Assembly: GCF_000970855.1 (NCBI RefSeq)
Contig: NZ_KQ034055.1
Coordinates: 25,633 to 49,632, forward strand
DNA: 24,000 nucleotides
DNA from: Lactobacillus helsingborgensis
GTDB lineage: Bacteria > Bacillota > Bacilli > Lactobacillales > Lactobacillaceae
Direction: 5' to 3'
This document shows positions 190 to 22,827 of the stretch, one piece after another (position 1 is the first letter of the stretch; every line of letters starts with the position of its first letter). The notes below the pieces were generated by a model that did no database searches, was not told the DNA's origin, and saw only the letters and a list, made by a program, of their open reading frames with translations. The position numbers were made by a program, and so were the translations under genes.

Positions 190-2646
190 ATGAGTTTACG
201 AGCATTAATAGAAAATAATAGGTCAAAGATAAAGAAACTGCAGAAATTAGTTGAAAAAATCGAAATATTATCTGGCCAGTACTCGCAACTGAGTGATAAT
301 CAATTACAAACAGAAACGGATAGGTTTAAAACACTTTATGCTAACGGAACAAGTCTTGATCAATTATTACCTGAAGCCTTTGCAGCTATAAGAGAAGCTG
401 ATAAGCGCGTCTTAGGTATTTATCCTTACCCTGTGCAGTTAATGGGAGGTATAGTTCTTCATCAGGGAAACCTAGCAGAAATGAAAACTGGAGAAGGCAA
501 GACGATAACTGAGACTATGCCTACTTATTTAAATGCACTTGCTGGAAAGGGAGTTCACGTAGTAACTGTGAACGATTATTTATCAAAAAGAGACTTTGAA
601 GAAATGAGTTCAGTTTTCACTTTTATGGGATTAACTGTTGGGCAAAATGGAAATGATATGTCAATTGAATTAAAGCAGAAAGCCTATAACTGTGACATAA
701 CATATTCTACTAATGATGCTTTGGCTTTTGATTATTTGAGAGACAATATGGCTCTATTTAAAGCCAATCAAGTCCAAAGACATTTAAATTATGTAATTGT
801 TGATGAAATAGATTCAATCTTAATAGACGAAGCAAGGACACCGTTAATCATAGCTGGTGATGCAAAAAGCTATAAAACTATGTATAAACAGGCTGACGAG
901 TTGGCCAAACGAATGACAAAAGAAGATTATGAAATTGATCGAGAAACTAAGACTGTCACTCTAAAGCGTTCAGGTATTTTAAAAGCAAATAATGCTTTAG
1001 GATTAAAAAATGTCTACGGTAAAGATTCTTATGTATTAGCTCACTATCTTGATGTAGCTATGAAAGCTAATTATACAATGGATAAAGATAAGGACTATAT
1101 CGTTAAAGATGGTCAAGTATTAATTGTAGATACATTCACTGGTCGCGTAATGGAAGGTAGGCGGTTTTCCGATGGACTCCATCAGGCACTAGAAGCGAAA
1201 GAAAATTTAACAATCAATGATGCTAATAAAACAGAAGCAACAATAACTTATCAGAATTATTTTAAATTATATAAAAAATTAGCTGGAATGACAGGGACTG
1301 CTGCAACTGAAAGCCAGGAATTTTATGAAACATTTGGGATGCAAGTAATTTCTATACCAACAAATAGACCAAATATTAGAAAAGATATGAATGATGAGCT
1401 TTATCCAACCGAAAAATCAAAGTTTAGAGCTGTGGTTAAAAAAATAGAAAAGGTACACGCAAGCGGTCAACCAATTCTAGTAGGAACGGCATCAGTTGAA
1501 CATTCAGAGTTGATTTCAAATTTGTTATCTAGTAAAAACATTCCACATACAATGCTTAATGCTAAAAATAATGAAAAAGAAGCCGAGGTTATAGCAATGG
1601 CTGGACAGCTTGGCGCTGTGACTATAGCTACTAATATGGCTGGTAGAGGTACAGATATTAAATTGGGACCTGGGGTAGAACAACTCGGAGGGTTATTTGT
1701 CTTGGGAACCGAAAAACATGAGTCAAGAAGAATTGATGAGCAGCTGAGAGGAAGAGCAGCAAGACAAGGCAATCCAGGAATTACTGTTTTCTATATGTCG
1801 TTAGAAGATGAGGTGGTAACTAGATTTGGTGGAAAACAAGCAGAAAAAATCAAAAAAAAATGCATTAGCAATAATACAGAAATGCAGTCAATAAAAAGTA
1901 ATAGGATAATTGATAGAACAATAGAAGAGGCTCAGAAACGAGTTGAAGGAAATAATTTTGATCAGCGTAAAGAAACATTAAGATACGATGATGTATTGAA
2001 TGAGCAAAGAAAAGATTTTTATAACGAACGTCAGAAAATTATTGACTACAAAGGCGATCTGACTTCTTTCATTATAGGAATGCTAGCTAGAACAATAATA
2101 AGAGTAGTTGATAAATTCTACCTAGATTTTGAACATGCTAATTATAGAGGCCTAGTTACATACGTAAGAGAAAGCTTAAATTTAGACCTTGATCCTGAGG
2201 GGACCCTTGAAGAATTCAAATTAGCAGATAAACGGGGCGAAAAAATTAAGCGCAATCTTAAAGAAAAAATTGAAAAAAACAAGAGGTTCCATCGAATAAG
2301 TTTAAGCAGACTTAAAACATTTAGTAAAAAAGAGTTGAGAGAATATATTTTTTCACAAGTCAAAAAAGAAGTTAATGATAAAAAATCATTATTAGTTGAT
2401 GAGAGAAGCTTAAATGATTTTGAGCGAATAATAATGTTAAGACAATTTGACTACAATTGGAAAAGTCATATTTATGAAATAGAGCAATTGCGTGAAGCAG
2501 TGACTCTACGTGGATATGGCCAATATAATCCATTAGTTGAATATCAAAAAATGGCTCATACTTTGTATCAGCAAATGGTTAATAACATAGAAAAAGACGT
2601 TAGCGAGTTTTTCTTAACGGCTGAAATAAGAGAAAGTGTTCAATAA
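190..2646 (+). CDS. secA2: SecA-family preprotein translocase ATPase, accessory (SecA2-like) copy
   Basis: 818 aa. DEAD-motor motifs: MKTGEGKT (Walker A), VIVDEIDSILIDEARTPLII (Walker B), TNMAGRGTDI, and RRIDEQLRGRAARQGNPG. The protein ends just after the helical scaffold (..YGQYNPLVEYQK..) and has no C-terminal Cys/His zinc tail. It is followed 3 nt later by a SecY paralogue and is not in a housekeeping context. Confidence 0.85.
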   Translation: MSLRALIENNRSKIKKLQKLVEKIEILSGQYSQLSDNQLQTETDRFKTLYANGTSLDQLLPEAFAAIREADKRVLGIYPYPVQLMGGIVLHQGNLAEMKTGEGKTITETMPTYLNALAGKGVHVVTVNDYLSKRDFEEMSSVFTFMGLTVGQNGNDMSIELKQKAYNCDITYSTNDALAFDYLRDNMALFKANQVQRHLNYVIVDEIDSILIDEARTPLIIAGDAKSYKTMYKQADELAKRMTKEDYEIDRETKTVTLKRSGILKANNALGLKNVYGKDSYVLAHYLDVAMKANYTMDKDKDYIVKDGQVLIVDTFTGRVMEGRRFSDGLHQALEAKENLTINDANKTEATITYQNYFKLYKKLAGMTGTAATESQEFYETFGMQVISIPTNRPNIRKDMNDELYPTEKSKFRAVVKKIEKVHASGQPILVGTASVEHSELISNLLSSKNIPHTMLNAKNNEKEAEVIAMAGQLGAVTIATNMAGRGTDIKLGPGVEQLGGLFVLGTEKHESRRIDEQLRGRAARQGNPGITVFYMSLEDEVVTRFGGKQAEKIKKKCISNNTEMQSIKSNRIIDRTIEEAQKRVEGNNFDQRKETLRYDDVLNEQRKDFYNERQKIIDYKGDLTSFIIGMLARTIIRVVDKFYLDFEHANYRGLVTYVRESLNLDLDPEGTLEEFKLADKRGEKIKRNLKEKIEKNKRFHRISLSRLKTFSKKELREYIFSQVKKEVNDKKSLLVDERSLNDFERIIMLRQFDYNWKSHIYEIEQLREAVTLRGYGQYNPLVEYQKMAHTLYQQMVNNIEKDVSEFFLTAEIRESVQ

Positions 2647-2649
2647 GAG

Positions 2650-3936
2650 ATGGTTACTCCAAAAAAAGAAAGTCGCCAAAATTTGATAAGGAGATTTGCG
2701 ATTACCATATTTGTGTTAATTATATACGATCTTTTAACATATGTGACAATTCCTGGCGTAAATCCTAGACAGCTAGTTCTACTAAGCAATAATGCAACTC
2801 TTACCATGATTAGTTTGTTATCTGGAGGTGGTTTTCAAAACTTTTCACTAATGTCAATGGGGGTCAGTTCTTATGTATCATCACAAATTATAGTCCAGCT
2901 TTTACAGTCAAACGTAGTGTCAACGTTTACTGATTGGAGTAAACAAGGAGAAATAGGAAGAAGAAAATTAGGCCAACTAGTAAGAAGTTTTACAGTTATT
3001 TTAGGCTTAGTGCAATCTGTTGGCATAATTTCCGGGATTAATACTTTAACCAACTATGGTTTTGTTTTAATAAATAGTTGGTGGAACTACTTAGTAATTG
3101 GTTTCTTGTTAACGGCTGGCACATTTATTGCAATGTGGCTAGGGGATCAAATTACACAATATGGATTAGGAAATGGGATATCAGTAATTATTGCAGCAGG
3201 TATTGTCAAGCAATTGCCGAAAAGCGTTAAATCATTCATATTAAATGTGTCTGATACAGCTGGCACAAGCTGGGACAAGATTTTTTTTGTGTGTTTCTTA
3301 TTAATTAGTTTGGTTGTTTTTATTACTTGGTTTAATCGATCTGAATATAGAGTTCCTATACAGTACACCAGAAGGATAAGTCAAACTTCTCCCTACAGTT
3401 ACTTACCATTGAAAATAATTGTGCCGTCGGTTGTCCCGGTTATTTTTAGCAACAGTATTTTAATGATTCCGCAAACATTTTTAATGTTTTTTCAGAATGA
3501 CCAAAAAAATAATTGGTTTAGAGTAGTCAATAATATTTTTTCTTTAAGTACAACTACTGGCATTGTTTTATATATTATTTTAATAATATTTTTTACTTAT
3601 CTTTATTCTCTGATTCAAGTTGACCCAAATATTCTAGCAGACAATCTTTCTCGTCAAGGAGCTTATATACCAGGTGTGTGGCCTGGGGAACCCACAGCTA
3701 TCTATATTCGTAATCTCTTATATGATTTAGACTTGCCAGGATCAATTTTTTTAACAACAATTTCTGTAATTCCAATAATATTATCAAATAGTATTTCACC
3801 AAACCTAAGAACCGGTTTAAGTGGCTCAAGTTTATTAATTGTTATTGGGGTTTTAACAGATATTGGCAGGCAAATAGAGGGATTAAAGTTTAAAGAAAAT
3901 AATCCAAAGATATTAAATGCAGAATATGAAATTTAA
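2650..3936 (+). CDS. secY2: SecY-family translocon channel paralogue (SecY2-like)
   Basis: 428 aa and polytopic, with roughly 10 hydrophobic segments. SecY signatures: IPGVNP, LLSGGGFQNFSLMSMGVSSYVSSQIIVQLL and DWSKQGEIGRRKLGQ. It is not in an rplO-secY-adk ribosomal context. The start lies 3 nt after the secA2 stop. Confidence 0.8.
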   Translation: MVTPKKESRQNLIRRFAITIFVLIIYDLLTYVTIPGVNPRQLVLLSNNATLTMISLLSGGGFQNFSLMSMGVSSYVSSQIIVQLLQSNVVSTFTDWSKQGEIGRRKLGQLVRSFTVILGLVQSVGIISGINTLTNYGFVLINSWWNYLVIGFLLTAGTFIAMWLGDQITQYGLGNGISVIIAAGIVKQLPKSVKSFILNVSDTAGTSWDKIFFVCFLLISLVVFITWFNRSEYRVPIQYTRRISQTSPYSYLPLKIIVPSVVPVIFSNSILMIPQTFLMFFQNDQKNNWFRVVNNIFSLSTTTGIVLYIILIIFFTYLYSLIQVDPNILADNLSRQGAYIPGVWPGEPTAIYIRNLLYDLDLPGSIFLTTISVIPIILSNSISPNLRTGLSGSSLLIVIGVLTDIGRQIEGLKFKENNPKILNAEYEI

Positions 3937-4330
3937 AAATAATGTAAAAATCTTTAGAAAAGTAAAAAATATGCACCATTTTATTGAAATAGCATTGCTT
4001 GTAATAGGAACTAGATATATTTTTTTGCCTTATACAAGATATGTAATTTGGGAGCAAAATACTACTTTTAATAAAATTAGTTCTAATTCGAATAAATTAG
4101 CAATCATTTACCGTAAAGATTGTATTCGGTGTAAAAAAACTTTACCTAGGCTAATGATAAAACATGCTTTAGACAAAAAGTATGTATACATAATTAATGT
4201 CAATAATTTAACTAAAAGGCAATTAAAGAGACTAGATGTCAATAGTACGCCGGTATTTAGACTGAAAAACCTAAGTTATAACACTGTAGACCAAAGGAAA
4301 ATACAGGATCTTTGGTTGAATTCAAAGTAA
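3917..4330 (+). CDS. Small membrane-anchored thioredoxin-fold-like protein with a CxxC motif (start codon uncertain: 3917, 3926 or 3971)
   Basis: There is one N-terminal hydrophobic helix (HHFIEIALLVIGTRYIF). It is followed by LAIIYRKDCIRCKKTLP (beta-strand then CxxC), VYIINVN and STPVF, an order typical of a thioredoxin fold. The ORF overlaps the secY2 stop, and no clear SD precedes it. Confidence 0.5.
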   Translation: MQNMKFKNNVKIFRKVKNMHHFIEIALLVIGTRYIFLPYTRYVIWEQNTTFNKISSNSNKLAIIYRKDCIRCKKTLPRLMIKHALDKKYVYIINVNNLTKRQLKRLDVNSTPVFRLKNLSYNTVDQRKIQDLWLNSK

Positions 4331-4598: not shown

Positions 4599-5756
4599 TT
4601 AATTTGTCACACTTTCTACGGGGACCCAATCCCAGTTTAATTCGTAAATCACGTTTAATACTGTCGTGTTTTTACCTTTTACTAAAGCATGGTAAGCAAC
4701 AGTTACATAAGCATGATCTTCATCAATTATTTGAATACCTTCAACTTCACTATGCTTACCGGCGATGTCGATTTTTTTCCATTTACTTAGGTTGACTGCA
4801 AACCAATTAGACATATCAGCTCTTTCTTCTTCTGATAATTTTTCCCCATTTTCACTTCTTGAAGGAATTTTTATAATTTGTTTGTGATATGTTGTAAATT
4901 TCTTTTTAACTTTATCGTAAAATGGGGATTTTTGACTGGTAATATAAATGTTACCGTCATTGTCTAAATCGTATCCCTGAACAGACTCAATATTTCCTTG
5001 ATAGCGTATTACATCGATAGGTTGCTTAGTTTTTTTGTCTTTACCCTTCTTATACATGTTTAAAAAGGGTTTGACAGTAAAACTTTCTATCTCACTTTTA
5101 TCTGGATCTTTTAATTTATCCGTCAAATCACCTATATTAATAAGACCATGTTCACCTTCTTTTTTATCAAGTTCCTCGTTAATACAATGAGTAGGATAAA
5201 TTGCAAAATGTCCAGTACCATTTTTCTCTACACTGGCAATTAAAAACTTTTTATAATCAGGTGAAAGGGCAATTTCAACTCGATGCATATATTTGCCAGC
5301 AAATCTATCTTTTTCATTTCCTGCTCTGTTTAAATATCCTAATCGTGTAAGCTGAGCATTAGAACTATATACAGGCTTGGAATTTTTGATATCAATTCTA
5401 GCTATTTGAGTATCCCATTTACTTGAACCTTTACTACTCTTTGTTCCAACAAACCATTTATTTGTAATACCAGAATATTCCCATGTCTCTGAATGTCCTC
5501 CAGCCTTACTTTTAAGAATTAATAAAGGTGAGGATTCATTCATTGGTATTTTAAAGTTTGTTCCTTCTTCATTTGATTTTGGCCGTTTGCCTCGTAAAAT
5601 ATAAATGTTTTTACTTTGACCTCTCAATTGAAGAGCATAGATAAAAGATGTACCAATATTACCTTTCTGTACAACAGAATGATGTTTTATATCTAGTTCA
5701 AACTTTTTAATTTTATTTATGTGCGTTGCATATGACTTAAACTTAAATTCTACCAT
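4599..5756 (-). CDS. Helveticin J family (class III bacteriocin-like) protein, no signal peptide
   Basis: 385 aa. Blocks I recognise from helveticin J homologues: VVQKGNIGTSFIYALQLRG, AGGHSETWEYSG, LSPDYKKFLIASVEKNGTGHFAIY, SVQGYDLDNDGNIYITSQKSP, HKQIIKIP, GKHSEVEGIQIIDEDHAYVTVAYH and IYELNW. The SD is AAGGAG, 8 nt before the ATG. The N-terminus is hydrophilic. Confidence 0.85.
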   Translation of the reverse strand: MVEFKFKSYATHINKIKKFELDIKHHSVVQKGNIGTSFIYALQLRGQSKNIYILRGKRPKSNEEGTNFKIPMNESSPLLILKSKAGGHSETWEYSGITNKWFVGTKSSKGSSKWDTQIARIDIKNSKPVYSSNAQLTRLGYLNRAGNEKDRFAGKYMHRVEIALSPDYKKFLIASVEKNGTGHFAIYPTHCINEELDKKEGEHGLINIGDLTDKLKDPDKSEIESFTVKPFLNMYKKGKDKKTKQPIDVIRYQGNIESVQGYDLDNDGNIYITSQKSPFYDKVKKKFTTYHKQIIKIPSRSENGEKLSEEERADMSNWFAVNLSKWKKIDIAGKHSEVEGIQIIDEDHAYVTVAYHALVKGKNTTVLNVIYELNWDWVPVESVTN

Positions 5757-5874
5757 TTTAAATATCTCCTTCTAAAATATACGAACACGTGTTCCTATAT
5801 GTGAATATATCATTTTTCTGGGTTAAAAGCAAATCTAAATTTGGGGAAATATAAAAGTGTGAAAATACTTATTT

Positions 5875-5918
5875 ATTAAAAAATGAGACCCGAAAGTTAG
5901 ACAACTTCCGAGCCTCAT
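5875..5918 (-). terminator. Rho-independent terminator of the SLAP-domain gene
   Basis: 15-bp stem (5884-5898 / 5903-5917). Its three + strand mismatches all become G-U wobbles in the minus-strand RNA. On the minus strand it is followed by TTTTTTAATAAA. Confidence 0.6.
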
Positions 5919-5945
5919 TTCACTTTTACATAACTTCACTAATTT

Positions 5946-7040
5946 TTATTTTTTATGAAAATTTTTAATTGCTTCTTCAGGAGTATTACTTGGACTTAAT
6001 TTTAGGCCATCAATAAATTTGACATCTTTTTTCTTAACATAACCTTGACCTACATTTATTACATCAGATCCACTGCTTCCGTTTGGCAAATCTGTAGCAT
6101 AAAATTGATGACCTGCTAAATGATAAAACAGCTCTACTTTGTTATCATTTTGCACCCATATATAAAGCAATTTGTTTACTTTTATAAAACCTCCTTGTTT
6201 GATAATTTTTTGCCCATGATGATCTTGCTTTGTACCGTCAGCATTATAAACATCAGTATCTTTATAAAACATAATATAAGTATAATGTTCAAATTTATAA
6301 TCATGTATTGGTATTTTCTTATCCGCTTTGACATCGCGGTACCATATCCAAAAGTCTGTACCTTTAATATGATATTCATATCCATCAGGATCGTCTATAT
6401 CCATGGAAGAATATTGAGCATAATCAACTTTGAATTTGGTTCCTTTCTTGACTCTCTTTACAATGTCTTCATCGTCACTATCAATATAAGCATAATCAGT
6501 AATATCAGCACCTTTTTTTGCAGTTACTGTCACAGTTGTTTCTTCTGTATTAGAGCCAATAATTTTACCCAAGTTAGCAGCTTTGACGTATTGTTTTTTA
6601 GGTCCACCAATACGGTAATATCTTAGACCGTTCTTAAATTTGAAGGAATTGCCATAAGTTGTAATCGTCTTACCTTTTTTAAGTAAGCGAGAATCGGCTC
6701 TACGTGAACTCGTAGCGTAAACAAAGGAATTATGTTTGATTTTACGTTTAACGCCATCTATGTTGCTGGCCTTGATATATTTATTTTTACCGCTAATTTC
6801 GTAACCTGGTGCAAACGGTTTAAATCTAAAAGAAATTGGATCGTCGTCCACCGTAACTTGAGTATAAGCCGTATATTTTCCTTTGACTTTATCACCGTAT
6901 AAGTCGCAAGCTTGAGCATTATGCATTATAGTCTTAACAATACTTTTGGCGTCTACAGTATTAACATGTTGGTTTAATATCAAACTTACAGACGCGCTTA
7001 AGATAGCAACTAGTAAGTAGCGAAAAAGTTTTTTATACAT
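5946..7040 (-). CDS. Secreted surface protein with two N-proximal SLAP-like repeats and an uncharacterised C-terminal half
   Basis: The signal peptide is MYKKLFRYLLVAILSASVSLILNQHVNTVDA. Two repeats fit the SLAP pattern: IMHNAQACDLYGDKVKGKY...GKNKYIKASNIDG and IKHNSFVYATSSRRADSRLLKKGKTITTYGNSFKFKNGLRYYRIGGPKKQYVKAANLG. Confidence 0.7.
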   Translation of the reverse strand: MYKKLFRYLLVAILSASVSLILNQHVNTVDAKSIVKTIMHNAQACDLYGDKVKGKYTAYTQVTVDDDPISFRFKPFAPGYEISGKNKYIKASNIDGVKRKIKHNSFVYATSSRRADSRLLKKGKTITTYGNSFKFKNGLRYYRIGGPKKQYVKAANLGKIIGSNTEETTVTVTAKKGADITDYAYIDSDDEDIVKRVKKGTKFKVDYAQYSSMDIDDPDGYEYHIKGTDFWIWYRDVKADKKIPIHDYKFEHYTYIMFYKDTDVYNADGTKQDHHGQKIIKQGGFIKVNKLLYIWVQNDNKVELFYHLAGHQFYATDLPNGSSGSDVINVGQGYVKKKDVKFIDGLKLSPSNTPEEAIKNFHKK

Positions 7041-7162
7041 ATAACTTTTACTTCTTTCTTTAAGGCACTAACCAAACTAATTATAACGCTTTTATTTGAG
7101 TAAAATTAAGAGTAAAAGATTTTATCTAAAGTATCAAGCTAGTTAATCATAAGATATCACAG

Positions 7163-7888
7163 TTAGATAATGTCTGGATCAGAGCACCATCTGACTTCAA
7201 AGACCCGGTTACAAACTGGTACGATTGATCTAATAAAGTGCTTGTCAATTTTGAGGCTGTAATAAGAAACAGTTAAAAAAATATGATCTTCACTAATTAC
7301 TTGGATACTTTTAAATTCAGTTGTGCAGTGCTCATGATCCAAAATAGTGTCATCTAGCATATCTAAGATTCTCCATTCAGAAGGATCCGTGCTGTTCCAA
7401 GCTATTTTGATAATTTTACGGTCATGCGAAAAATAATTACTTACGGTTGGAGGATATTCGCTAGCGATATATATATTAAATCTATTATCAATTCCAAAAC
7501 CTTGGAAAGAGCCAACTAAACTACTAAAGTTTTTAATCATAAATTTACTAAAATAATCTACATTTTCAAGGTTAAGAACATCATCCTCATTATCATCAAT
7601 AAGTGATGCTATATTATTTAAATCGTAAGAAACGAAATAAGCAGTGCCACATTTGTCAATTACCATCAAAACAAAAGAGCCATAGTCTGGTGTGATTGTA
7701 ATACGTGAAGAAAGTATGTCAGACTTTTCAATATTAAAGTTACCAGCCTTATTTAAACCTGATAGATGCTTTAAAACAATACTCGAATCGTACTCGATAT
7801 AATTTGTAGGAGTAGTTTTATCTGTTAACAACTTACTATATAAAGACTTACTTATTTTATATTTAGGTATAATTAGTGCTTTACTCAT
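7163..7888 (-). CDS. Divergent, shorter helveticin-J-family paralogue, no signal peptide
   Basis: The start was moved to ATG 7888 (MSKALIIPKY..; SD AAAGGA 10 nt upstream). Blocks are collinear with the 4599-5756 product: ITPDYGSFVLMVIDKCGTAYFVSY vs LSPDYKKFLIASVEKNGTGHFAIY; SFQGFGIDNRFNIYIASE vs SVQGYDLDNDGNIYITSQ; DRKIIKI vs HKQIIKI; TEFKSIQVISEDHIFLTVSYY vs SEVEGIQIIDEDHAYVTVAYH; VFEVRW vs IYELNW. Confidence 0.65.
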   Translation of the reverse strand: MSKALIIPKYKISKSLYSKLLTDKTTPTNYIEYDSSIVLKHLSGLNKAGNFNIEKSDILSSRITITPDYGSFVLMVIDKCGTAYFVSYDLNNIASLIDDNEDDVLNLENVDYFSKFMIKNFSSLVGSFQGFGIDNRFNIYIASEYPPTVSNYFSHDRKIIKIAWNSTDPSEWRILDMLDDTILDHEHCTTEFKSIQVISEDHIFLTVSYYSLKIDKHFIRSIVPVCNRVFEVRWCSDPDII

Positions 7889-7964
7889 AAATATCACGTC
7901 CTTTAACATAAAAAACATTAATATTAACATATCTTTCCAATACCAATATAGCATAATTTTATAT

Positions 7965-10991: not shown

Positions 10992-11286
10992 ATATATAAG
11001 GAAAATAATTATCTAAATCAAAAGAGTAGTGAATTGCTTTTAGGCCTAAGTTTATTTTAAATTAATTTTTTACCTATACAGAAGAGACAGATACTGGTCT
11101 ATAAGTCCCAGTGAATGATATTTACTGATTTATGACTTCTTTTTTTGCATGTTTTACTGGCTATAAAGCTAATTAATTTGTCTTTGTAGGCAAACAAATA
11201 AATAATTAAGGTCTATAATTGGTAAATTTATTAGATCAACAAACTTTCATATCAAATAAACTGAAACTTAAGTTCAAAATCTCAAA

Positions 11287-11334
11287 TCTCAAACTCTTTT
11301 ATTAAAACACTAATTTTAATAAAAGAGTTTGAGA
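11287..11334 (-). terminator. 21-bp perfect hairpin ~100 nt downstream of the first KAP-like gene (possible terminator / palindromic element)
   Basis: Stem TCTCAAACTCTTTTATTAAAA/TTTTAATAAAAGAGTTTGAGA with loop CACTAA. The T-tract is weak on both strands. The core ACTCTTT(A/T)ATTAAA resembles the 10951 hairpin. Confidence 0.35.
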
Positions 11335-11434
11335 CTTACCTATTAGAATTTTGCTTACTTTTTATTAATTACAAAGTGGTATAAAAACTATTGTTACTAG
11401 GAAATTAGACTATAGCTTTATCTTCTATATATTT

Positions 11435-13762
11435 TCACAATATTTTTTTTATGAATGATATCCAGTCGGGATCATTTTGAACTTGACTTAATAAATCTTG
11501 TAAGTGCATCAACTTATATGAATCCAATAATTGAGCTAACTTATTTAATATCACCTTTTGGGAAAAATTATTTCGCACATTGTATTGATGTGTAATAGCG
11601 GCAATTCTTAAGAAAAAGGCGAACCATTCACGAGAATTAAGCATTTTTTCAAGTTCAGAACCTTTATTTGACTTAAGTAAGTTACAAGCAGTTTGTTTAA
11701 TTTCTTTATATCTGTTATATACATAATCACCATATATTTTATTTTTGTATTCAAAATTGAGAATTCTTTCACCTTTTGCTCTTGTTCCAAGTCCAAGATA
11801 GCAATCCCAAAAAGCCACATATTCAAAATCTGCAAGTTGCTCTATTTTTTCAACCTTTTTTTCTATTGGTTGGATGTTTAGGTTGTCATATGCTTCGTCT
11901 GAAATATCTGGACTTGGTGATTTAAAACATAATTGAACGAGCAAAGCTTCTGCATCATATAGCTTTTTACCAAAATTTTTTTGATTTTCTATTTCATATG
12001 CTCTTTTAGAATAGTACCTAGTAAGTGAGTATCTATTAATATTGTTAAGCTGTATATCTGAAATAGATCTATCGGCATTGTTAAAACTGTGCGTAACAGT
12101 TCCATAAATTGGTAAACAGGCTCTGTAAATATAAAGTAGTTCTGTTAATAAGGCTTCGTTATTTGGTTTTTTAGCCATTTCAGTTATTGCTTTACTCATT
12201 TTAGAAAAAACGATCTTATTTCGCTCTAACGGTGATTTCATAGGATTTGTGTTAAACTCGGTTTTTTCAAGTTTAATTTCGTAATTAAGAAATATTTTTT
12301 TGATCAGCAAGTTGGGCTTATGCCGTGGCTCAGCATACATTGCAGAAATAGCAGCTATCAATAACTTATTCGAATAACTTTCATTGTTTATTGAAACAGA
12401 ATATAATGAAAGCTCATCAATAAGACTTGCTTTATCAGTATCATGGCCAAAAGCCAGTTGACGAATTTCTTTCGAGTTATTAATAATTTTATTTAATTCT
12501 CTAACTGAATGAGTATAAGTTAAATCATTAATAAAATAATTTACAGGTAAACTTACAAAAGGTTCAGGAAATGATATGTTATCACTATCTTCTTTAAAAA
12601 TATTGTTAACATATTGCTTTATTTCTTTTTGGGCTTGATCATCATTACTTGATATTTCAAATGCTTTTAAAGTTTCTATACTTTTCTTTTCCTGAATCTT
12701 TTGCCAATTATTAATTAAAATCTCATACATATTTCTATGGAATAAAAATAAGTAAATGATAAAAAGTTGTTGATTTACTTGTACTCTACCTATCTTTTCT
12801 TGTCTAAAGAATTCATTTTTTACATAAGATAAAAAATGATTTGCTTGACGTAACGTAAGGTTTTCAAGTTCGAAGAGCTTGAAAATTTCCATATCATCTA
12901 TTTCTTCTTTTAAGTTTTCAGAAATAATTAGCATTATTTCCTCTCCAAAAAATTCAGGCTTTAATATGATTGGTAGCGATACTGTTTGATCAATTATTTT
13001 TTCTAAATAATTATGTTTTACTTTGACTATGTTTTTCCAATCCCCTACGAATACTATTCTTGCTTTCCTATTTTCACTAAATTCAACAATTTTTTTACAT
13101 AGAAAAATTATCGGTCTAAATAATTTTTTTGGTTTTTTATCGTACCACTTAATAATCTTTTGAGGGTATTTTAGACCTTCTTCATGGATAGCATTAAAAA
13201 GCTTATAGAGTTCTTTTTGTGTAACTTCATCTAACCGATCAAAATCATCGATTATCAAAACTCTACTTTTTCTGTAAAATGGCCAACGTAATTTAAAAAG
13301 GCTCAAATTCATTAGAATAGTATCAACATTTATTAATTTGTTCTTAGATAAGTTAAACAAAGTAGTCACAATTACAGTAATTACAGTAACTAATAAAAAC
13401 CATGCGTCAAAATTAACATAATTAAAAATACCTATACCTGTTAGCCAAGCGCTACCAAATATCATCCAACCGACTAGTGCAGAAGTGAAAAGCCCTTTGA
13501 AGAAATTTAATATAGGATTGACCTTAGAAAATACTTGTTTTGCTAAGCTTTTTTCATTTTTAGGATGCCATAAACTTAAATAAATAAATTTTAGTGTATC
13601 CTTTGATAAAGTTTCTGTTTTTTGCAAATATCTAGTTTTTCCACTACCCCATTTGCCCTGTAAAAAATAAGTTTTATTACCGTTATTTACTAATAAATCG
13701 GCAAACTTTTTTGCCCAATCAGATGTATCAATCTCCTTGATTTTCCATTCGGTATCTTTCAT
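11435..13762 (-). CDS. KAP-family P-loop NTPase-like membrane protein, paralogue 1 (distal gene of pair)
   Basis: 775 aa. Walker A is FLQGKWGSGKT. Two hydrophobic helices follow (TSALVGWMIFGSAWLTGIGIF; AWFLLVTVITVIVTTLFNL), and only then Walker B VLIIDDFDRL. TM helices inserted inside the P-loop domain are the KAP hallmark. The helical C-terminal half (~430 aa) has no motif I recognise. SD AAAGGAG lies 7 nt before the ATG. Confidence 0.8.
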   Translation of the reverse strand: MKDTEWKIKEIDTSDWAKKFADLLVNNGNKTYFLQGKWGSGKTRYLQKTETLSKDTLKFIYLSLWHPKNEKSLAKQVFSKVNPILNFFKGLFTSALVGWMIFGSAWLTGIGIFNYVNFDAWFLLVTVITVIVTTLFNLSKNKLINVDTILMNLSLFKLRWPFYRKSRVLIIDDFDRLDEVTQKELYKLFNAIHEEGLKYPQKIIKWYDKKPKKLFRPIIFLCKKIVEFSENRKARIVFVGDWKNIVKVKHNYLEKIIDQTVSLPIILKPEFFGEEIMLIISENLKEEIDDMEIFKLFELENLTLRQANHFLSYVKNEFFRQEKIGRVQVNQQLFIIYLFLFHRNMYEILINNWQKIQEKKSIETLKAFEISSNDDQAQKEIKQYVNNIFKEDSDNISFPEPFVSLPVNYFINDLTYTHSVRELNKIINNSKEIRQLAFGHDTDKASLIDELSLYSVSINNESYSNKLLIAAISAMYAEPRHKPNLLIKKIFLNYEIKLEKTEFNTNPMKSPLERNKIVFSKMSKAITEMAKKPNNEALLTELLYIYRACLPIYGTVTHSFNNADRSISDIQLNNINRYSLTRYYSKRAYEIENQKNFGKKLYDAEALLVQLCFKSPSPDISDEAYDNLNIQPIEKKVEKIEQLADFEYVAFWDCYLGLGTRAKGERILNFEYKNKIYGDYVYNRYKEIKQTACNLLKSNKGSELEKMLNSREWFAFFLRIAAITHQYNVRNNFSQKVILNKLAQLLDSYKLMHLQDLLSQVQNDPDWISFIKKIL

Positions 13763-13838
13763 TTAATTTGCTCCTTTACTTCTAACCAAAGTAAAACCTT
13801 TTTTCAAAGAATTTTTAAAAAATATAGTGGCTTAGATT

Positions 13839-16130
13839 TTATTTAATCTTTTTTGTCCAATAAGGATCATTAGCCACATTGACCAGTAATTTTTGCATAA
13901 TTTCTTTTAGTCTTTCATTACTTATTGAATTTTTTCTGTGTTTAATTATAGCTTCAGCTTTAGTGCTTTTATACGAACTTAGCAACTGATTTATATGTAT
14001 AAATATTGTTTGCTGTGAAGAAATATTTTGTAAATCATATTGATGGGTAATGGCAGCAATTCTTAAGATGAAATGGAACCATTCTTTTGAATCAAATAAA
14101 TCAACAAGTTCTGAACTTTTATTCGATTGGATCAAGTTGCAAACAGCTTGTTTAATTTTTTTATATCGGTCATATACATAATCACCATATATCTCATTTT
14201 TGTATTCAAAATTGAGAATTCTTTCACCTTTTGCTCTTGTTCCAAGTCCAAGATAGCAATCCCAAAAAGCCACATATTCAAAATCTGCAAGTTGTTCTAT
14301 TTTTGCAACCTTTGTTTTTATTGGTGGAATCTTCAAACTGTAGTATGATACATCTAAAATATTTGAAGATGTCGGTTTAAAAAAACATAATTGGACAAGT
14401 AAAGCCTCAGCATCATATAGCTTTTTACCAAAATCTTTTTGATTTTCTATTTCATCTGCTTTTTTAGAGAAATACTTTGTAAGTGCATACTTACTGATTA
14501 AGCGATTATTTTTACTATTAAAAATACGAGTGACACTATAATCAGATTCGGGAGAACGAAAATTTAATAAGCAGGATCTGTAAATATAAAATTGCTCTGT
14601 TAGGGACATTTCGATATCCAAATTTTTTGTAATATTAGAAATTATTGTATGCATTTCGGAAAGAATATCCTTAATAGGTTTTGAATCCCTTTTATCATAA
14701 GAAGATTCCGGTAATGAATTTTCAATTCTTATTTCACAGTTCTCAAGTATTTTCATAACTAGTGAATTAGGCTCATGACGTGGCTCAGAATGCATTGCAA
14801 AAATTGCTGCCTTTGCTAGCTGAGGAATTATTTCCGCAATATAATCTTCCAAGTTTACAGAGCTTAAAAATTCAAAAATCTCTTGATATAAAGCTTGATC
14901 ACTATCTTTAGAATATGCTAGTGGCTTAATTATTTCATCATTTTGTATGGAAATAATTAGATTGTTGACAGTTGGAATATAAGATTTTTCGTTTAAAAAA
15001 TAAGCAACTTGATGTCTTTGAAACTCTGGTGGATATTTCACAGTATCAGCAAGGATTTTATTAATATATTGTTCTAATTCATCTTCATCATCCTGCTTAG
15101 TAGCAGTTTTAGTTAGATTATTAGAGTCCATACAGTAAGCAATAGTACTTAATTCTTTTTTATTTTTTTCTTTTTGCCAATCTTCATAAAGTTTTTGGTA
15201 TCTATCTTTATGAAAGAGATAAAGATAGATAATAAGTAGTTCTTGGTCGGTTTGTACTCTTCCTTTTTTCTTTTGTCTACAAAATTCGTCTTCAACATAC
15301 GATAGAAAATGATTAGCTTCACGTAGAGTCCTGTGTTCGTATATGAATAACTTTCCTATTTCAACTCTGCTCAAATCTTCATTTAAATTACTTGAAATTA
15401 TTTCTACAAGTCTATTACTAAAACTTTGAGGATTTAAAACAAACGGTAGGGCAATCACTTGGTCAATAATCTTGTCTAAAAAATTATTTTTATTGTCCTT
15501 TATATTGTTCAAATTACCCACAAAAATAATTCGACATGAGCTCCTACCTTGTTGAATAGCATTGAAAAGTCTATAAAGTTCCCCTTGCGTTTTTTGACTT
15601 AAACGATCAAAATCGTCAATAATTAGGACGTTAGGACAGATTTTGGGGTTTCCTTTCAACATTTTTATGCTTGATGACATAAGGATTTTATCTACATTTA
15701 TCACTTTGTTCTTTGTGAGACTGAATAAATTAATTACTACAGTTGCTATTATAGTTGTGATTGTAAATGCATAATTGGGTAAATTTATGGAAATAACTCC
15801 TTTTATAGCTAAAATAAGACTGCAAACTATTGTCAAGGCAACCAATGTATGACCTACTATTGTAGCTCTCTTAGCCAATTTTGGATGGGTTGCATCAAAA
15901 AGTTGCTTACTCAAGTTTTCGTTAAAGTTTGGCTTCCATAATTCTAAATAAATAAAATTTAAATTGTCTTTTGCTTTTTTTTCTACGTTTTTTAAATATT
16001 CTGTCTTTCCACTCCCCCACTTACCTTGTAAGAAAAAAGTCTTATTACTTTCGTCCCTAAGTAAATTTGCAAATTCTTCAGCATACATATCAGTTGAAAT
16101 AGTAGGGATACGCCATTTATTTTTTGTCAT
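13839..16130 (-). CDS. KAP-family P-loop NTPase-like membrane protein, paralogue 2 (promoter-proximal gene of pair)
   Basis: Start set at ATG 16130 (MTKNKWRIPTIS.., parallel to MKDTEWKIKEID.. of paralogue 1); the track start at 16145 is a GTG. Walker A is FLQGKWGSGKT. The helices are HTLVALTIVCSLILAIKGVI and AFTITTIIATVVINLFSL. Walker B is VLIIDDFDRL. It lacks the ~40-aa insert that paralogue 1 carries after NAIHEEG. Confidence 0.8.
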   Translation of the reverse strand: MTKNKWRIPTISTDMYAEEFANLLRDESNKTFFLQGKWGSGKTEYLKNVEKKAKDNLNFIYLELWKPNFNENLSKQLFDATHPKLAKRATIVGHTLVALTIVCSLILAIKGVISINLPNYAFTITTIIATVVINLFSLTKNKVINVDKILMSSSIKMLKGNPKICPNVLIIDDFDRLSQKTQGELYRLFNAIQQGRSSCRIIFVGNLNNIKDNKNNFLDKIIDQVIALPFVLNPQSFSNRLVEIISSNLNEDLSRVEIGKLFIYEHRTLREANHFLSYVEDEFCRQKKKGRVQTDQELLIIYLYLFHKDRYQKLYEDWQKEKNKKELSTIAYCMDSNNLTKTATKQDDEDELEQYINKILADTVKYPPEFQRHQVAYFLNEKSYIPTVNNLIISIQNDEIIKPLAYSKDSDQALYQEIFEFLSSVNLEDYIAEIIPQLAKAAIFAMHSEPRHEPNSLVMKILENCEIRIENSLPESSYDKRDSKPIKDILSEMHTIISNITKNLDIEMSLTEQFYIYRSCLLNFRSPESDYSVTRIFNSKNNRLISKYALTKYFSKKADEIENQKDFGKKLYDAEALLVQLCFFKPTSSNILDVSYYSLKIPPIKTKVAKIEQLADFEYVAFWDCYLGLGTRAKGERILNFEYKNEIYGDYVYDRYKKIKQAVCNLIQSNKSSELVDLFDSKEWFHFILRIAAITHQYDLQNISSQQTIFIHINQLLSSYKSTKAEAIIKHRKNSISNERLKEIMQKLLVNVANDPYWTKKIK

Positions 16131-16173
16131 TTTTCCCTTTAACACCTTATACTAACCATATAATATAACCTAA

Positions 16174-16201
16174 ATTATAGAACTAAATATAAGTTTAGCA
16201 A
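16174..16201 (-). promoter_or_regulatory. Candidate sigma-A promoter of the KAP pair
   Basis: The minus strand reads TTGCTA (16201-16196), a 16-nt spacer, then TATAAT (16179-16174). This lies ~45 nt upstream of ATG 16130. Confidence 0.4.
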
Positions 16202-16271
16202 AATGAATTTTGGAAAAATAATATGAATAAGTTTAGTATAAAGATTTTTAAAAAAATCGAACTGTAATAAC

Positions 16272-16309
16272 AAAAAAGTGGATACTTTTATGTAGTATCC
16301 ACCTTTTTG
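16272..16309. terminator. Bidirectional rho-independent terminator separating the TA module from the KAP operon
   Basis: AAAAAA-GTGGATACT-TTTATGT-AGTATCCAC-CTTTTTGTTT. The stem is a perfect 9 bp with an A-run on one side and a T-run on the other. Confidence 0.65.
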
Positions 16310-16446
16310 TTTGATAATTTATTAATAAGTCTAAGTTTAGAAAAACTTATGCGGAAAGAAATTATTCTGAATAAATATGCATTATCTGTTTAGTGCTTTA
16401 TTACGAAGAATTAAATTAGTCCAAATTGTTTTGAATTTTAAATGGT

Positions 16447-16821
16447 CTATTTAGGTATTTTAGATAAATCAATTCTATCATAGGCGCCATTTTTGTTGTT
16501 TTCAGGATGTGGATCTAATCCAATAATGGTTATATCTCCTACATTAGGTGCGTAAACCCAAAACATCCTTCTTGCATTGCTAGTCTTATTTTCTAAATAA
16601 GACTGCCACACTTTCATTCCATATCTATTTGTTAGTGATGAAATTTCATGTGTATGAAGACCAGGATGTTTTGGATTTTCGGATAAAAATTTTAAAGCTT
16701 TACCCCATTTTTTATATAAGTTTGCGTCAGCTTTACTAATTGATTTACTACGATAAGATGTCTGTAACTTTTGCCATAACTCATCCATGTATGGCACTCC
16801 CATTATAATGTTAAACCGCAT
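16447..16821 (-). CDS. RelE/ParE-superfamily-like toxin (type II TA); start may be internal (16803 or 16788)
   Basis: The C-terminal pattern is HPGLHTHEISSLTNRYGMKVWQSYLENKTSNARRMFWVYAPNVGDITIIGLDPHPE. It fits the RelE/ParE core (H..L.G....W......YR..Y.....I.I..I..H). The gene directly abuts the upstream small gene (TAAATG). Confidence 0.55.
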   Translation of the reverse strand: MRFNIIMGVPYMDELWQKLQTSYRSKSISKADANLYKKWGKALKFLSENPKHPGLHTHEISSLTNRYGMKVWQSYLENKTSNARRMFWVYAPNVGDITIIGLDPHPENNKNGAYDRIDLSKIPK

Positions 16822-17061
16822 TTAAAAGTCCGATAAGTCTACTGGTGCAGACACTCTTCCTTTTTTTAAATTAGCAACAGATTCATCCATTACTTTTAAT
16901 GCTTTATCGGAAATATTTTTTGGTTTAACTAATTCTCTAGGCTCCAGAACTAAGCAGCCGTTGTCATATTCTTTTACGTGGTAATAGTCATATTTAGATT
17001 TACGAAGTGTAATCCGTTTTTTACTATCTGTATGAGCATTGTAATTGTTGATAACTTGCAT
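16822..17061 (-). CDS. AbrB/SpoVT-like antitoxin candidate
   Basis: Start at ATG 17061 with SD AAGGAG. The 79-aa product begins ..DSKKRITLRKSKYDYYHVKEYDNGCLVLEPRE.. (swapped-hairpin-like) and has an acidic tail. It sits upstream of and abuts the toxin-like ORF. Confidence 0.5.
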   Translation of the reverse strand: MQVINNYNAHTDSKKRITLRKSKYDYYHVKEYDNGCLVLEPRELVKPKNISDKALKVMDESVANLKKGRVSAPVDLSDF

Positions 17062-21536: not shown

Positions 21537-22827
21537 TGTACTGAGCCCCAAAAGTTGGACAAACTTTTGGTTTTTTATGACTAAACTATCTAAACCGAAA
21601 AAATTGAACTTTAACAAGATTGGAAAATTAAGGGTATTTCGGTACTAACTATTGCTAGAAGAGAAAATCTAAATCCTACAGCTTTAAATTATAAAATTAA
21701 ACTAATTGATCGTAACGGCCCAGTTATTTTAGATTGTTCTCACCAAACTTATACCTAAGAATTCAAGGAAAATGCAATTAAGCATGCACTATTTGGCGCT
21801 AAATCTATTATTCAAGTATCACTATATTTGAGCTTGAGAATCTACGGTATGTTAAACTATTGGCTACGCGAATACAAAGAAAACGGGTACGATATCATTA
21901 TCAAACCCAAAGGACGAACTGCTCATAAACAAGAAAAAAGGAACTATTGCGACAGCAACTGCAACAGAAGATTCAGCATCTAGAAGAAGAGAGCTTGCAA
22001 TTGTGTATCGTCAATGCCTACAAAAAAAATAAATGCCTTGGAGCATAAAACACCCAAGAAATAATTTAGACGAATACTAAGCTAAGGTGCATCTTTAAAG
22101 TCAGCTTAGATTATATTTTTAAGACTTACCCTTATTTGCCCGCAGCATCTACTATTATGCTATTTCTCACTTGTTAAACAAAATAAGCAACCCAAATTAA
22201 CCGCTGGAATTAAAGAAGTTTATGACTATCATCAAAAACGTTATGGCTACCGACGGATTGCTCTGCAACAGATTAAAGAAGGCTAGCAAGCTAAATTAAA
22301 GTGGTCAGAAGGATTATGAATAAACTGGGTTTAAAAGCTAATAAATGAAATCGACATAAATATTCTAGTTATCGCGATACAGTGGGCAAGATTACACCCA
22401 TTTTAATTAAACCCAGCCTTCTTGCTTTAAGACCAAATATGAAGTGGTACGCCGATATTACTAAATTTTATCTTAAGGGGCAAAAGCTTTATTTGTTACC
22501 TGTCACCGATTCTAGATGGCTGAGCTGAGGAGATTGTTTTCTACTCAATTACATGGCATTACTCAAAGCGTGTCATGCAAGGAAAATTCAATGGACAACA
22601 GCTTAATAGAAAACTTCTTTGGCTTGCTTAAAATGGAAATGTTTTACGGTCAAGAATATAAGTGCCATAATCTGCAAAAACTAACTAAAGCATTCACAAA
22701 ATGCATTCGCTACTAAAACGAAGAAAGTATTAAAGAAAGACCAAAAGGCCCGATCTCGAAAGAACATCGAGCACAAGCCTTAAAGAAATGATATTAACTT
22801 TTTGTCTAAGTTTTTGGGTCCAGTATA
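21537..22827 (+). mobile_element. Decayed IS3-family insertion sequence (about 1.29 kb) with imperfect terminal inverted repeats
   Basis: The left end is TGTACTGAGCCCCAAAAGTTGGACA (21537-21561). The reverse complement of the right end (22803-22827) is TATACTGGACCCAAAAACTTAGACA, matching at 19 of 25 positions by my count. The interior encodes OrfA- and OrfB-like transposase fragments. Confidence 0.75.
21567..22791 (+). pseudogene. IS3-family transposase (OrfA HTH + DDE OrfB) disrupted by multiple stops and frameshifts
   Basis: Recognisable fragments are MTKLSKPKKLNFNKIGKL.., ..LREYKENGYDIIIKPKGR.., ..HQKRYGYRRIALQ.., ..MKWYADITKF.., and the C-terminal ..CKENSMDNSLIENFFGLLKMEMFYGQEY...NEERIKERPKGPISKEHR. 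That C-terminus matches the IS3 end pattern (GNC.DN...E.FF..LK.E..Y........Y.N..R.K..L.G.SP.E.R). In-frame TAA/TGA codons occur throughout, and the longest open piece is only 66 aa (22516-22716). Confidence 0.75.

Follow-up and report, generated by a model that had tools for sequence, protein, structure and literature searches.

Tandem KAP-family NTPase genes on a plasmid of the bee-gut bacterium Lactobacillus helsingborgensis: probable duplicates of a single-gene defence protein

The KapA/KapB locus

Lactobacillus helsingborgensis, a honey-bee gut bacterium, carries two adjacent genes for diverged, putatively membrane-embedded P-loop nucleoside triphosphatases (NTPases) of the KAP family, here named KapA and KapB. 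We analysed them within a 24,000-nt window of contig NZ_KQ034055.1 (assembly GCF_000970855.1, forward-strand positions 25,633-49,632; all coordinates below are those of the window), where RefSeq annotates both products only as 'P-loop NTPase fold protein'. Our analysis suggests that the pair does not constitute a new two-gene system but consists of duplicated members of a recently recognised single-gene kind of defence protein. The locus comprises the following features:

16278-16302, either strand: hairpin containing G+C, with T-runs on both strands
16174-16201, minus strand: candidate sigma-70-type promoter ahead of KapA, TTGCTA-16-TATAAT, 10/12 matches
13839-16130, minus strand: KapA, the upstream copy, a 763-aa KAP-family NTPase with predicted membrane helices (RefSeq WP_046325823.1; ATG at 16130)
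13763-13838, minus strand: KapA-KapB spacer, 76 bp, with a Shine-Dalgarno (SD) motif, AAAGGAG, at 13771-13777
11435-13762, minus strand: KapB, the downstream copy, a 775-aa KAP-family NTPase with predicted membrane helices (RefSeq WP_046325822.1)
11287-11334, minus strand: AT-rich hairpin downstream of KapB

KapA and KapB are co-oriented, and both the open reading frame (ORF) and RefSeq coordinates bear out the two ORFs of 775 and approximately 763 aa, 76 bp apart, that an earlier sequence-only reading of this DNA had described. An alternative GTG start at 16145 would extend KapA to 768 aa (ORF 13839-16145); RefSeq chooses the ATG. The SD motif that the earlier reading placed before the second gene lies 8 nt ahead of the KapB ATG, and a terminator scan of the region detected no terminator-like site in the spacer, in agreement with its claim that no convincing hairpin separates the genes; co-transcription is therefore probable. 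Its promoter and flanking hairpins fared less evenly. The promoter is present and outscores every other promoter-like site in the region; however, such sites are no commoner there than in shuffled sequences (36 found, 36.3 expected), so the match is weak evidence and its position is its sole support. The upstream hairpin was scored, and divides a pair of small upstream genes from the KapA promoter, while the hairpin at 11287-11334 is visible in the sequence but falls below the scanner's criteria.

Sequence comparison of positions 11000-16400 returned 100 % identity to the L. helsingborgensis plasmid pIBH002-1 (124.7 kb) and 97 % identity to plasmid pIBH003-1. Homology between the two plasmids stops at the hairpin after KapB, which coincides with query position 288. 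Both share the right flank, in which the two small abutting genes are accompanied by MazEF, XerS, a LysM protein and a tyrosine recombinase of 203 aa. On the left they diverge: pIBH002-1 has helveticin J, holin and helix-turn-helix genes, and pIBH003-1 has a dlt operon plus a third, convergent KAP copy, split into 362 and 263 aa (L002, 7667-9552).

Domain architecture and predicted structure

The KAP family has been characterised by two or four transmembrane (TM) helices lying within the NTPase domain (Aravind et al. 2004, as relayed by 10.1101/2022.08.21.504612). The corresponding features of KapA and KapB are as follows:

16002-16025, minus strand: KapA Walker A, GKWGSGKT, residue 41 (GTG numbering)
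15711-15884, minus strand: KapA predicted helical hairpin separating the Walker A and B motifs, formed by two hydrophobic helices and a short loop on the outside, residues approximately 83-140 (ATG numbering), from hydropathy and AlphaFold2
15600-15629, minus strand: KapA Walker B, VLIIDDFDRL, residue 173 (GTG numbering)
13842-15086, minus strand: KapA C-terminal all-alpha region, family-specific, proposed sensor or scaffold, residues 349-763
13634-13657, minus strand: KapB Walker A, GKWGSGKT, residue 36
13349-13513, minus strand: KapB hydrophobic hairpin region, residues approximately 84-138, from hydropathy
13232-13261, minus strand: KapB Walker B, VLIIDDFDRL, residue 168

Both proteins match Pfam KAP_NTPase (PF07693), KapA with 54.1 bits and KapB with 36.8 bits against a gathering cut-off of 20, whereas an NCBIfam search returned nothing over cut-off for either. 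The DDFDR of Walker B is invariant in 95 relatives, and two hydrophobic segments lie between the Walker motifs in 87 of 93 family members. By hydropathy, these segments correspond to 19-mers at residues 96-114 and 126-144 in KapA (GTG numbering) and at approximately 95-113 and 120-138 in KapB. By every sequence-level criterion of the family (hidden Markov model (HMM) match, Walker A and B motifs, and helices inserted between them), KapA and KapB are thus KAP proteins, as the earlier reading had proposed from the order of the motifs, and we place them in a Firmicute/Actinobacterial sub-family of these P-loop NTPases. Their membrane insertion is a prediction from sequence and modelling. The two share 45 % identity over their full length, close to the half that had been judged by eye, and in KapB alone the Walker B helix is followed by a lysine-rich insertion of 35 residues (EEGLKYPQKIIKWYDKKPKKLFRPIIFLCKKIVEFSENRKA) (window 13075-13180, KapB residues approximately 195-230).

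An AlphaFold2 model of KapA, built on a 95-sequence alignment, was returned with a mean predicted local distance difference test (pLDDT) score of 84 and a predicted template modelling (pTM) score of 0.79. It contains a five-stranded P-loop core, with helices at residues 83-113 and 120-140 inserted between the post-Walker A strand and the Walker B strand; next come a helical lid and, lastly, the all-alpha region. The flanks of the TM helices are rich in lysine and arginine and the connecting loop spans only approximately six residues, suggesting that both ends of the hairpin face inwards and that the NTPase is cytoplasmic. When the full KapA model was compared with the PDB using Foldseek, only generic NTPases, ORC/Cdc6-type AAA+ proteins, RuvBL, FtsH and RADAR RdrA were retrieved (TM-score no higher than 0.25). 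Given these AAA+-type matches, the NTPase-plus-lid module resembles an ATPase that works as a switch or in oligomerisation.

The C-terminal region is more difficult to place. Modelled alone, the last approximately 415 residues of KapA gave a pLDDT of 83 and a pTM of 0.83; however, Foldseek returned no significant match in the PDB (best E value 0.33, the top hits being ARM/HEAT/Pumilio-type solenoids), and a profile search of PDB sequences yielded nothing below an E value of 0.06. Neither Pfam nor NCBIfam recognises a domain in this region of KapA or KapB, and no enzymatic effector is recognisable there, consistent with the sequence-only reading, which had found no enzymatic motif in the C-terminal halves. 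An exhaustive HMMER scan of 1.84 billion protein representatives retrieved only 21 relatives of the region, essentially all of them KAP proteins of this family; two odd hits, an RTX repeat protein (P0125) and a tandem-repeat ORF (P0128), were rejected as repeat artefacts. Even within the family, the C-termini of the streptococcal relatives resemble those of KapA and KapB only marginally (hhalign probability 25 %). The family layout is, therefore, a conserved N-terminal module of approximately 400 residues to which a variable C-terminal region is attached, and the latter is probably a sensor, by analogy with the characterised proteins discussed below.

Distribution, duplication and sequence exchange

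The sequence-only reading had interpreted the pair as a dedicated module of two genes whose products act as a hetero-oligomer. To place the pair among its relatives, one genome per species was scanned with the family alignment, and all ORFs of 80 loci were searched with the family HMM. In other species the relatives are mostly single genes: one family member of 590-680 aa is present in approximately 76 of the 80 loci, and the full-length tandem pair occurs only on L. helsingborgensis plasmids. The family tree assigns KapA and KapB to separate sub-clades within a 'long-form' clade from bee-gut Lactobacillus, and each sub-clade is also found alone. For example, the B-like P0008 stands by itself in the chromosome with RelB/YoeB ahead of it.

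The downstream position is also variable. The KapA orthologue P0003, on the same plasmid backbone, has no KapB and is followed instead by a third-type KAP gene of 628 aa in convergent orientation; the related metagenomic plasmid L083 carries this third type as an intact 628-aa version that directly faces KapA. The chromosomal A-like P0005 is followed, 24 bp downstream and in four contigs, by a 395-aa ORF that matches only the last approximately 300 residues of KapB (33 % identity, E value 2e-44), and in L. kimbladii Hma2 the downstream copy is reduced to 139 aa. The exact KapB sequence itself always lies after KapA (six contigs); across relatives, however, KapA-like and KapB-like genes were not consistently found together and adjacent. 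The presence of singletons and of replaced, truncated or split copies argues for birth-and-death of a duplicating family and not for an obligate pairing of two components, and the KapA/KapB pair looks like a tandem, lineage-specific duplication within bee-gut Lactobacillus.

Comparison of the two plasmid alleles indicated that both copies are maintained under purifying selection, with ratios of non-synonymous to synonymous substitution (dN/dS) of 0.30 for KapA and 0.40 for KapB; the flanking genes show zero non-synonymous changes between the same alleles. Replacement changes cluster in the C-terminal halves (beyond residue 340 for 44.5 of the 47.5 in KapB), making the C-terminal region the fastest-evolving part of the proteins. 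The copies also share an exact direct repeat:

14196-14294, either strand: copy in KapA of an exact 99-nt direct repeat that KapA and KapB share, a gene-conversion tract
11741-11839, either strand: KapB copy of the same 99-nt repeat

The repeat lies inside a tract of approximately 300 nt that is 78-100 % identical between the genes, synonymous sites included. Such identity at synonymous sites, in paralogues otherwise only 45 % identical, indicates recent gene conversion. Two relatives, P0002 and P0003, are mosaics that combine an A-like N-terminus with a B-like C-terminal tail. Together, the full pair, the truncated partner, the singleton and the convergent third copy form a natural duplication series in which birth-and-death is combined with gene conversion, as in immune receptor families. 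This series of duplication and decay with gene conversion, and the concentration of fast evolution in the C-terminal region, appear to be new.

These observations bear on whether KapA and KapB might nevertheless be an obligate two-component system, that is, a hetero-oligomeric membrane NTPase in which neither protein works alone. The arrangement of the genes (co-oriented, 76 bp apart, with an SD motif and no terminator), the purifying selection on two intact copies, the constant position of the exact KapB sequence after KapA and the 395-aa KapB C-terminal homologue 24 bp after a chromosomal A-like gene are all as such a system would have them, and since the anti-phage protein Tmn is built from dimers (PMC13001434), mixed dimers are conceivable. 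However, a component that cannot work alone would hardly be a single gene in approximately 76 of 80 loci or a B-like singleton such as P0008, a KapA orthologue on the same backbone would not face a convergent KAP gene with no KapB, and the downstream copy would not decay to 395 and then 139 aa in relatives. In addition, the KAP proteins published as defence proteins act as single genes (PMC13552941). We therefore consider obligate pairing unlikely, and the two-gene module of the earlier reading is not supported by the comparison.

Defence contexts, comparison with known systems and neighbourhood

The genomic contexts of the relatives point to a role in defence. In streptococci, neighbour clustering and Pfam annotation revealed that the KAP gene directly adjoins HsdS or HsdM in 33 of 58 loci, and in 16 of the 58 it sits between hsdS and hsdM on the same strand with gaps of 10-27 bp, that is, inside a type I restriction-modification (R-M) operon. 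These streptococcal islands, located between scrK/phosphotransferase system (PTS) genes and metE, also carry RhuM, Fic, HigBA-like, UvrD/AAA_30 and ResIII-helicase genes. A Lactobacillaceae locus (L081) has the order hsdR-M-S-KAP, and Erysipelothrix has KAP-AbiH-hsdM-S-R with a large serine recombinase ahead. The Bifidobacterium asteroides copy adjoins AbiH, three other Bifidobacterium copies adjoin a C5-methylase and an MvaI/BcnI endonuclease, and that of Enterococcus sp. L013 adjoins a NACHT NTPase, bringing defence-island contexts to at least five genera. Relatives were also found on 52 plasmids (32 from Enterococcus and 18 from Lactococcus), 22 of them conjugative, whereas a tblastn search of phage genomes gave no match. 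In E. faecalis, on chromosomes and plasmids alike, a small serine recombinase gene overlaps the KAP gene or closely precedes it. The L. cremoris pCIS7 copy is disrupted and has lactococcin ABC/HlyD genes nearby.

Several smaller observations concern these loci. The streptococcal loci (L015-L082, e.g. L056, 7971-9851) form a variable island, and in 11 of them the KAP gene is followed by a conserved 251-aa ORF (cluster c16) with no Pfam match. In E. faecalis (L089-L092 and L101-L104), a second serine recombinase occasionally lies downstream, giving what looks like a recombinase-bounded cassette. One enterococcal KAP cluster is misnamed 'protein MraZ' at NCBI.

KAP NTPases were reportedly proposed as defence proteins in 2004, and their experimental testing as such dates only from 2025-26. 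An E. faecalis KAP NTPase (EF_KAP), which combines TM helices and a KAP domain with a 322-aa C-terminal region of unknown nature, reduced plaquing by up to six logs (PMC13552941). This defence was abolished by Walker B mutations and also by deletion of the C-terminal region, and since EF_KAP protects at a multiplicity of infection of 10, it does not act by abortive infection (PMC13552941). Three further KAP fusions from gut metagenomes were also protective (PMC13552941). The bait design of that study was linkage to a small serine recombinase (PMC13552941; preprint PMC12632615), which the E. faecalis relatives in our survey match by overlapping or following such a gene. The conflict or defence role that the earlier reading had proposed is thus supported by the R-M and Abi contexts of the relatives together with the E. 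faecalis experiments (PMC13552941), although its remark that no such system had been characterised is outdated for the single-gene form. The papers on the S. thermophilus and lactococcal defensomes do not mention this KAP family, and a literature search for COG4928 found nothing.

The closest known kind to KapA and KapB is this EF_KAP class of KAP NTPase fusions. In both, the KAP_NTPase domain and its membrane helices precede a stretch of over 300 aa without a known domain or fold, and the protein is a single polypeptide of lactic acid bacteria that is often plasmid-borne. In contrast, the C-terminal regions are unrelated in sequence, KapA and KapB lack the extra N-terminal TM helix, no serine recombinase adjoins them and they form two tandem, diverged copies where the class has one gene. 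Comparison of KapA with the E. faecalis relative P0106, whose gene is linked to a serine recombinase, returned 33 % identity over residues 11-401 (E value 7e-42), with C-terminal parts that are unrelated.

Tmn, a single-gene system of Gao et al. 2020 which the sequence-only reading had named as a KAP membrane NTPase, is indeed described as such in a 2023 preprint, its P-loop domain containing two TM helices (10.1101/2022.08.21.504612); however, a 2026 preprint reassigns it to a separate YobI family (PMC13001434), and the literature is thus inconsistent on its family. Tmn shares with KapA and KapB the two TM helices within the P-loop domain and a long C-terminal arm of helical or solenoid type, variable among homologues, and it is a single-gene defence that needs its Walker motifs. 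Its variable solenoid arm sets specificity, sensing T2 RIIB, a response at the membrane is powered by ATP turnover, and the protein forms a decamer from dimers and causes Mg2+ export and plasmolysis (PMC13001434). Neither a PADLOC Tmn model nor Pfam YobI (E value no higher than 1) matched KapA or KapB, so the likeness is one of architecture and not of family. PifA, responsible for T7 exclusion by the F plasmid, is likewise a plasmid-borne KAP-family NTPase acting in phage exclusion at the membrane (PMC13552941, PMC13001434), but is reported to lack TM helices (PMC13001434). PrrC/RloC-type genes, such as that of the R-M-guarding PrrC, are embedded in type I R-M operons in the same layout as the streptococcal KAP relatives (hsdS-hsdM), but have no sequence or domain relationship to them, which have no HEPN nuclease, and the pair in the window has no adjacent R-M genes.

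On balance, we favour the interpretation that KapA and KapB each act as an autonomous, single-gene NTPase defending against phages or other mobile elements, a reading that we hold as more probable than not. Each would be a cytoplasmic P-loop NTPase tethered to the membrane by its two-helix hairpin, and its C-terminal region would recognise a phage or plasmid component by analogy with EF_KAP and Tmn; the variable C-terminus fits what is reported of the Tmn arm and of the EF_KAP class. Recognition might then act as a switch on NTP turnover and on oligomerisation at the membrane, allowing the protein to block phage replication, and the output could be a Tmn-like ion export and plasmolysis, a PifA-like leakage or a non-abortive block as in EF_KAP. 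The pair would be retained because diverged C-terminal and TM regions probably broaden the range of invaders recognised, and gene conversion still swaps segments between the copies.

Several points weigh against this interpretation. The tight spacing, SD motif and absence of a terminator would equally fit a two-component operon. The published experiments concern E. faecalis and metagenomic KAP proteins, and not KapA, KapB or other bee-gut members; since the C-terminal region is unrelated to that of the E. faecalis protein and marginally like those of streptococci, function may not transfer. Even the identity of P0106 with EF_KAP is unproven, as its Walker B DD lies at residues 244-245 in the longest possible ORF and at 246-247 in the published protein; its Pfam envelope is uninformative in this respect. 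PADLOC, which the earlier reading had named as a check, provided no support: the 2023 models, run on KapA, KapB and four relatives, gave only marginal P-loop matches (PifA, QatA and PDC-S49), and the PifA match to KapB (E value 0.001) covers approximately 50 residues around the P-loop, with no PifA match to KapA. Finally, no R-M, Abi or serine recombinase gene adjoins KapA or KapB in the window, where the neighbours are bacteriocin, secretion, toxin-antitoxin (TA) and tyrosine recombinase genes, and no hsd gene lies within 14 kb on either side of the pair on pIBH002-1, so that the R-M-embedded layout of the streptococcal relatives is absent here.

A function in the service of the plasmid, such as PifA-like exclusion of rival plasmids and conjugative elements or plasmid maintenance, would suit a pair that lies on a 125-kb plasmid beside MazEF, a TA-like pair, XerS and another tyrosine recombinase, and whose relatives occupy 52 plasmids (22 conjugative). 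Tmn resides in the leading regions of plasmids (10.1101/2022.08.21.504612), and KAP NTPases are frequently plasmid-borne (PMC3387028). Yet many relatives are chromosomal and lie within R-M operons, and those tested experimentally counter phages (PMC13552941), making this explanation improbable as the primary one, although plasmid-serving and antiviral roles are not mutually exclusive.

More speculatively, KapA and KapB may form mixed membrane oligomers, for instance with dimers as building blocks, and, more broadly, the sub-family may guard R-M systems, the plasmid pair being a duplicate freed from that task; we regard this reading as unlikely. If true, one NTPase/TM hub would carry two different C-terminal sensor arms, and the gene-conversion tract (KapA residues approximately 599-660) would keep a shared interface identical. 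The embedding between hsdS and hsdM in streptococci, which seems to be new for this family as far as our literature searches show, suggests a testable guard-of-restriction hypothesis, offered by analogy and as a hypothesis only. A non-defence membrane role, in bacteriocin export or immunity or in accessory Sec-dependent handling of surface proteins, is very improbable: two helveticin J genes, SLAP and SecA2/SecY2 lie in the window, a C39 ABC exporter and LcnD on the E. faecalis chromosome and lactococcin ABC/HlyD genes on pCIS7, but the left flank varies between the two L. helsingborgensis plasmids, with a dlt operon replacing the bacteriocin cluster, the E. faecalis gene belongs to a recombinase cassette inserted beside the exporter, the pCIS7 copy is disrupted and most relatives have R-M or Abi neighbours.

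If KapA and KapB are autonomous defence proteins, as we favour, the locus flags unannotated defence content on the megaplasmids of bee-gut Lactobacillus as well as on dairy Lactococcus and clinical Enterococcus plasmids. The remainder of the window encodes two helveticin J genes, SLAP, SecA2/SecY2, MazEF, two tyrosine recombinases and an IS3-family remnant, confirming the bacteriocin-like, TA, recombinase and insertion sequence (IS) context that had been read from the sequence; we describe this neighbourhood as an accessory region of antagonism, TA and recombinase genes. The small abutting genes upstream of KapA encode 79 aa and then 124 aa (16447-17061, minus strand) in a TA-like layout. All plasmid backbones seen (L001, L002, L083 and L093) have this pair ahead of KapA, and it has no match in Pfam, NCBIfam, PADLOC or PDB sequences. 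The IS3-family transposase remnant (21700-22800) is degenerate, with fragmented ORFs, no listed gene and approximately 70 % DNA identity to IS3 elements of other Lactobacillus plasmids. At the other end of the window (190-4330) lies a plasmid-borne SecA/SecY pair of accessory Sec-like type, upstream of which the record lists small genes and genes annotated as SecG; the pair adjoins the SLAP-domain and helveticin genes and is unusual plasmid cargo. Bacteriocin or export loci lie near family members in three unrelated settings (window 4599-7954; L089, 1907-5443; L100, 9661-14340), a closeness that probably reflects a coincidence of accessory regions.

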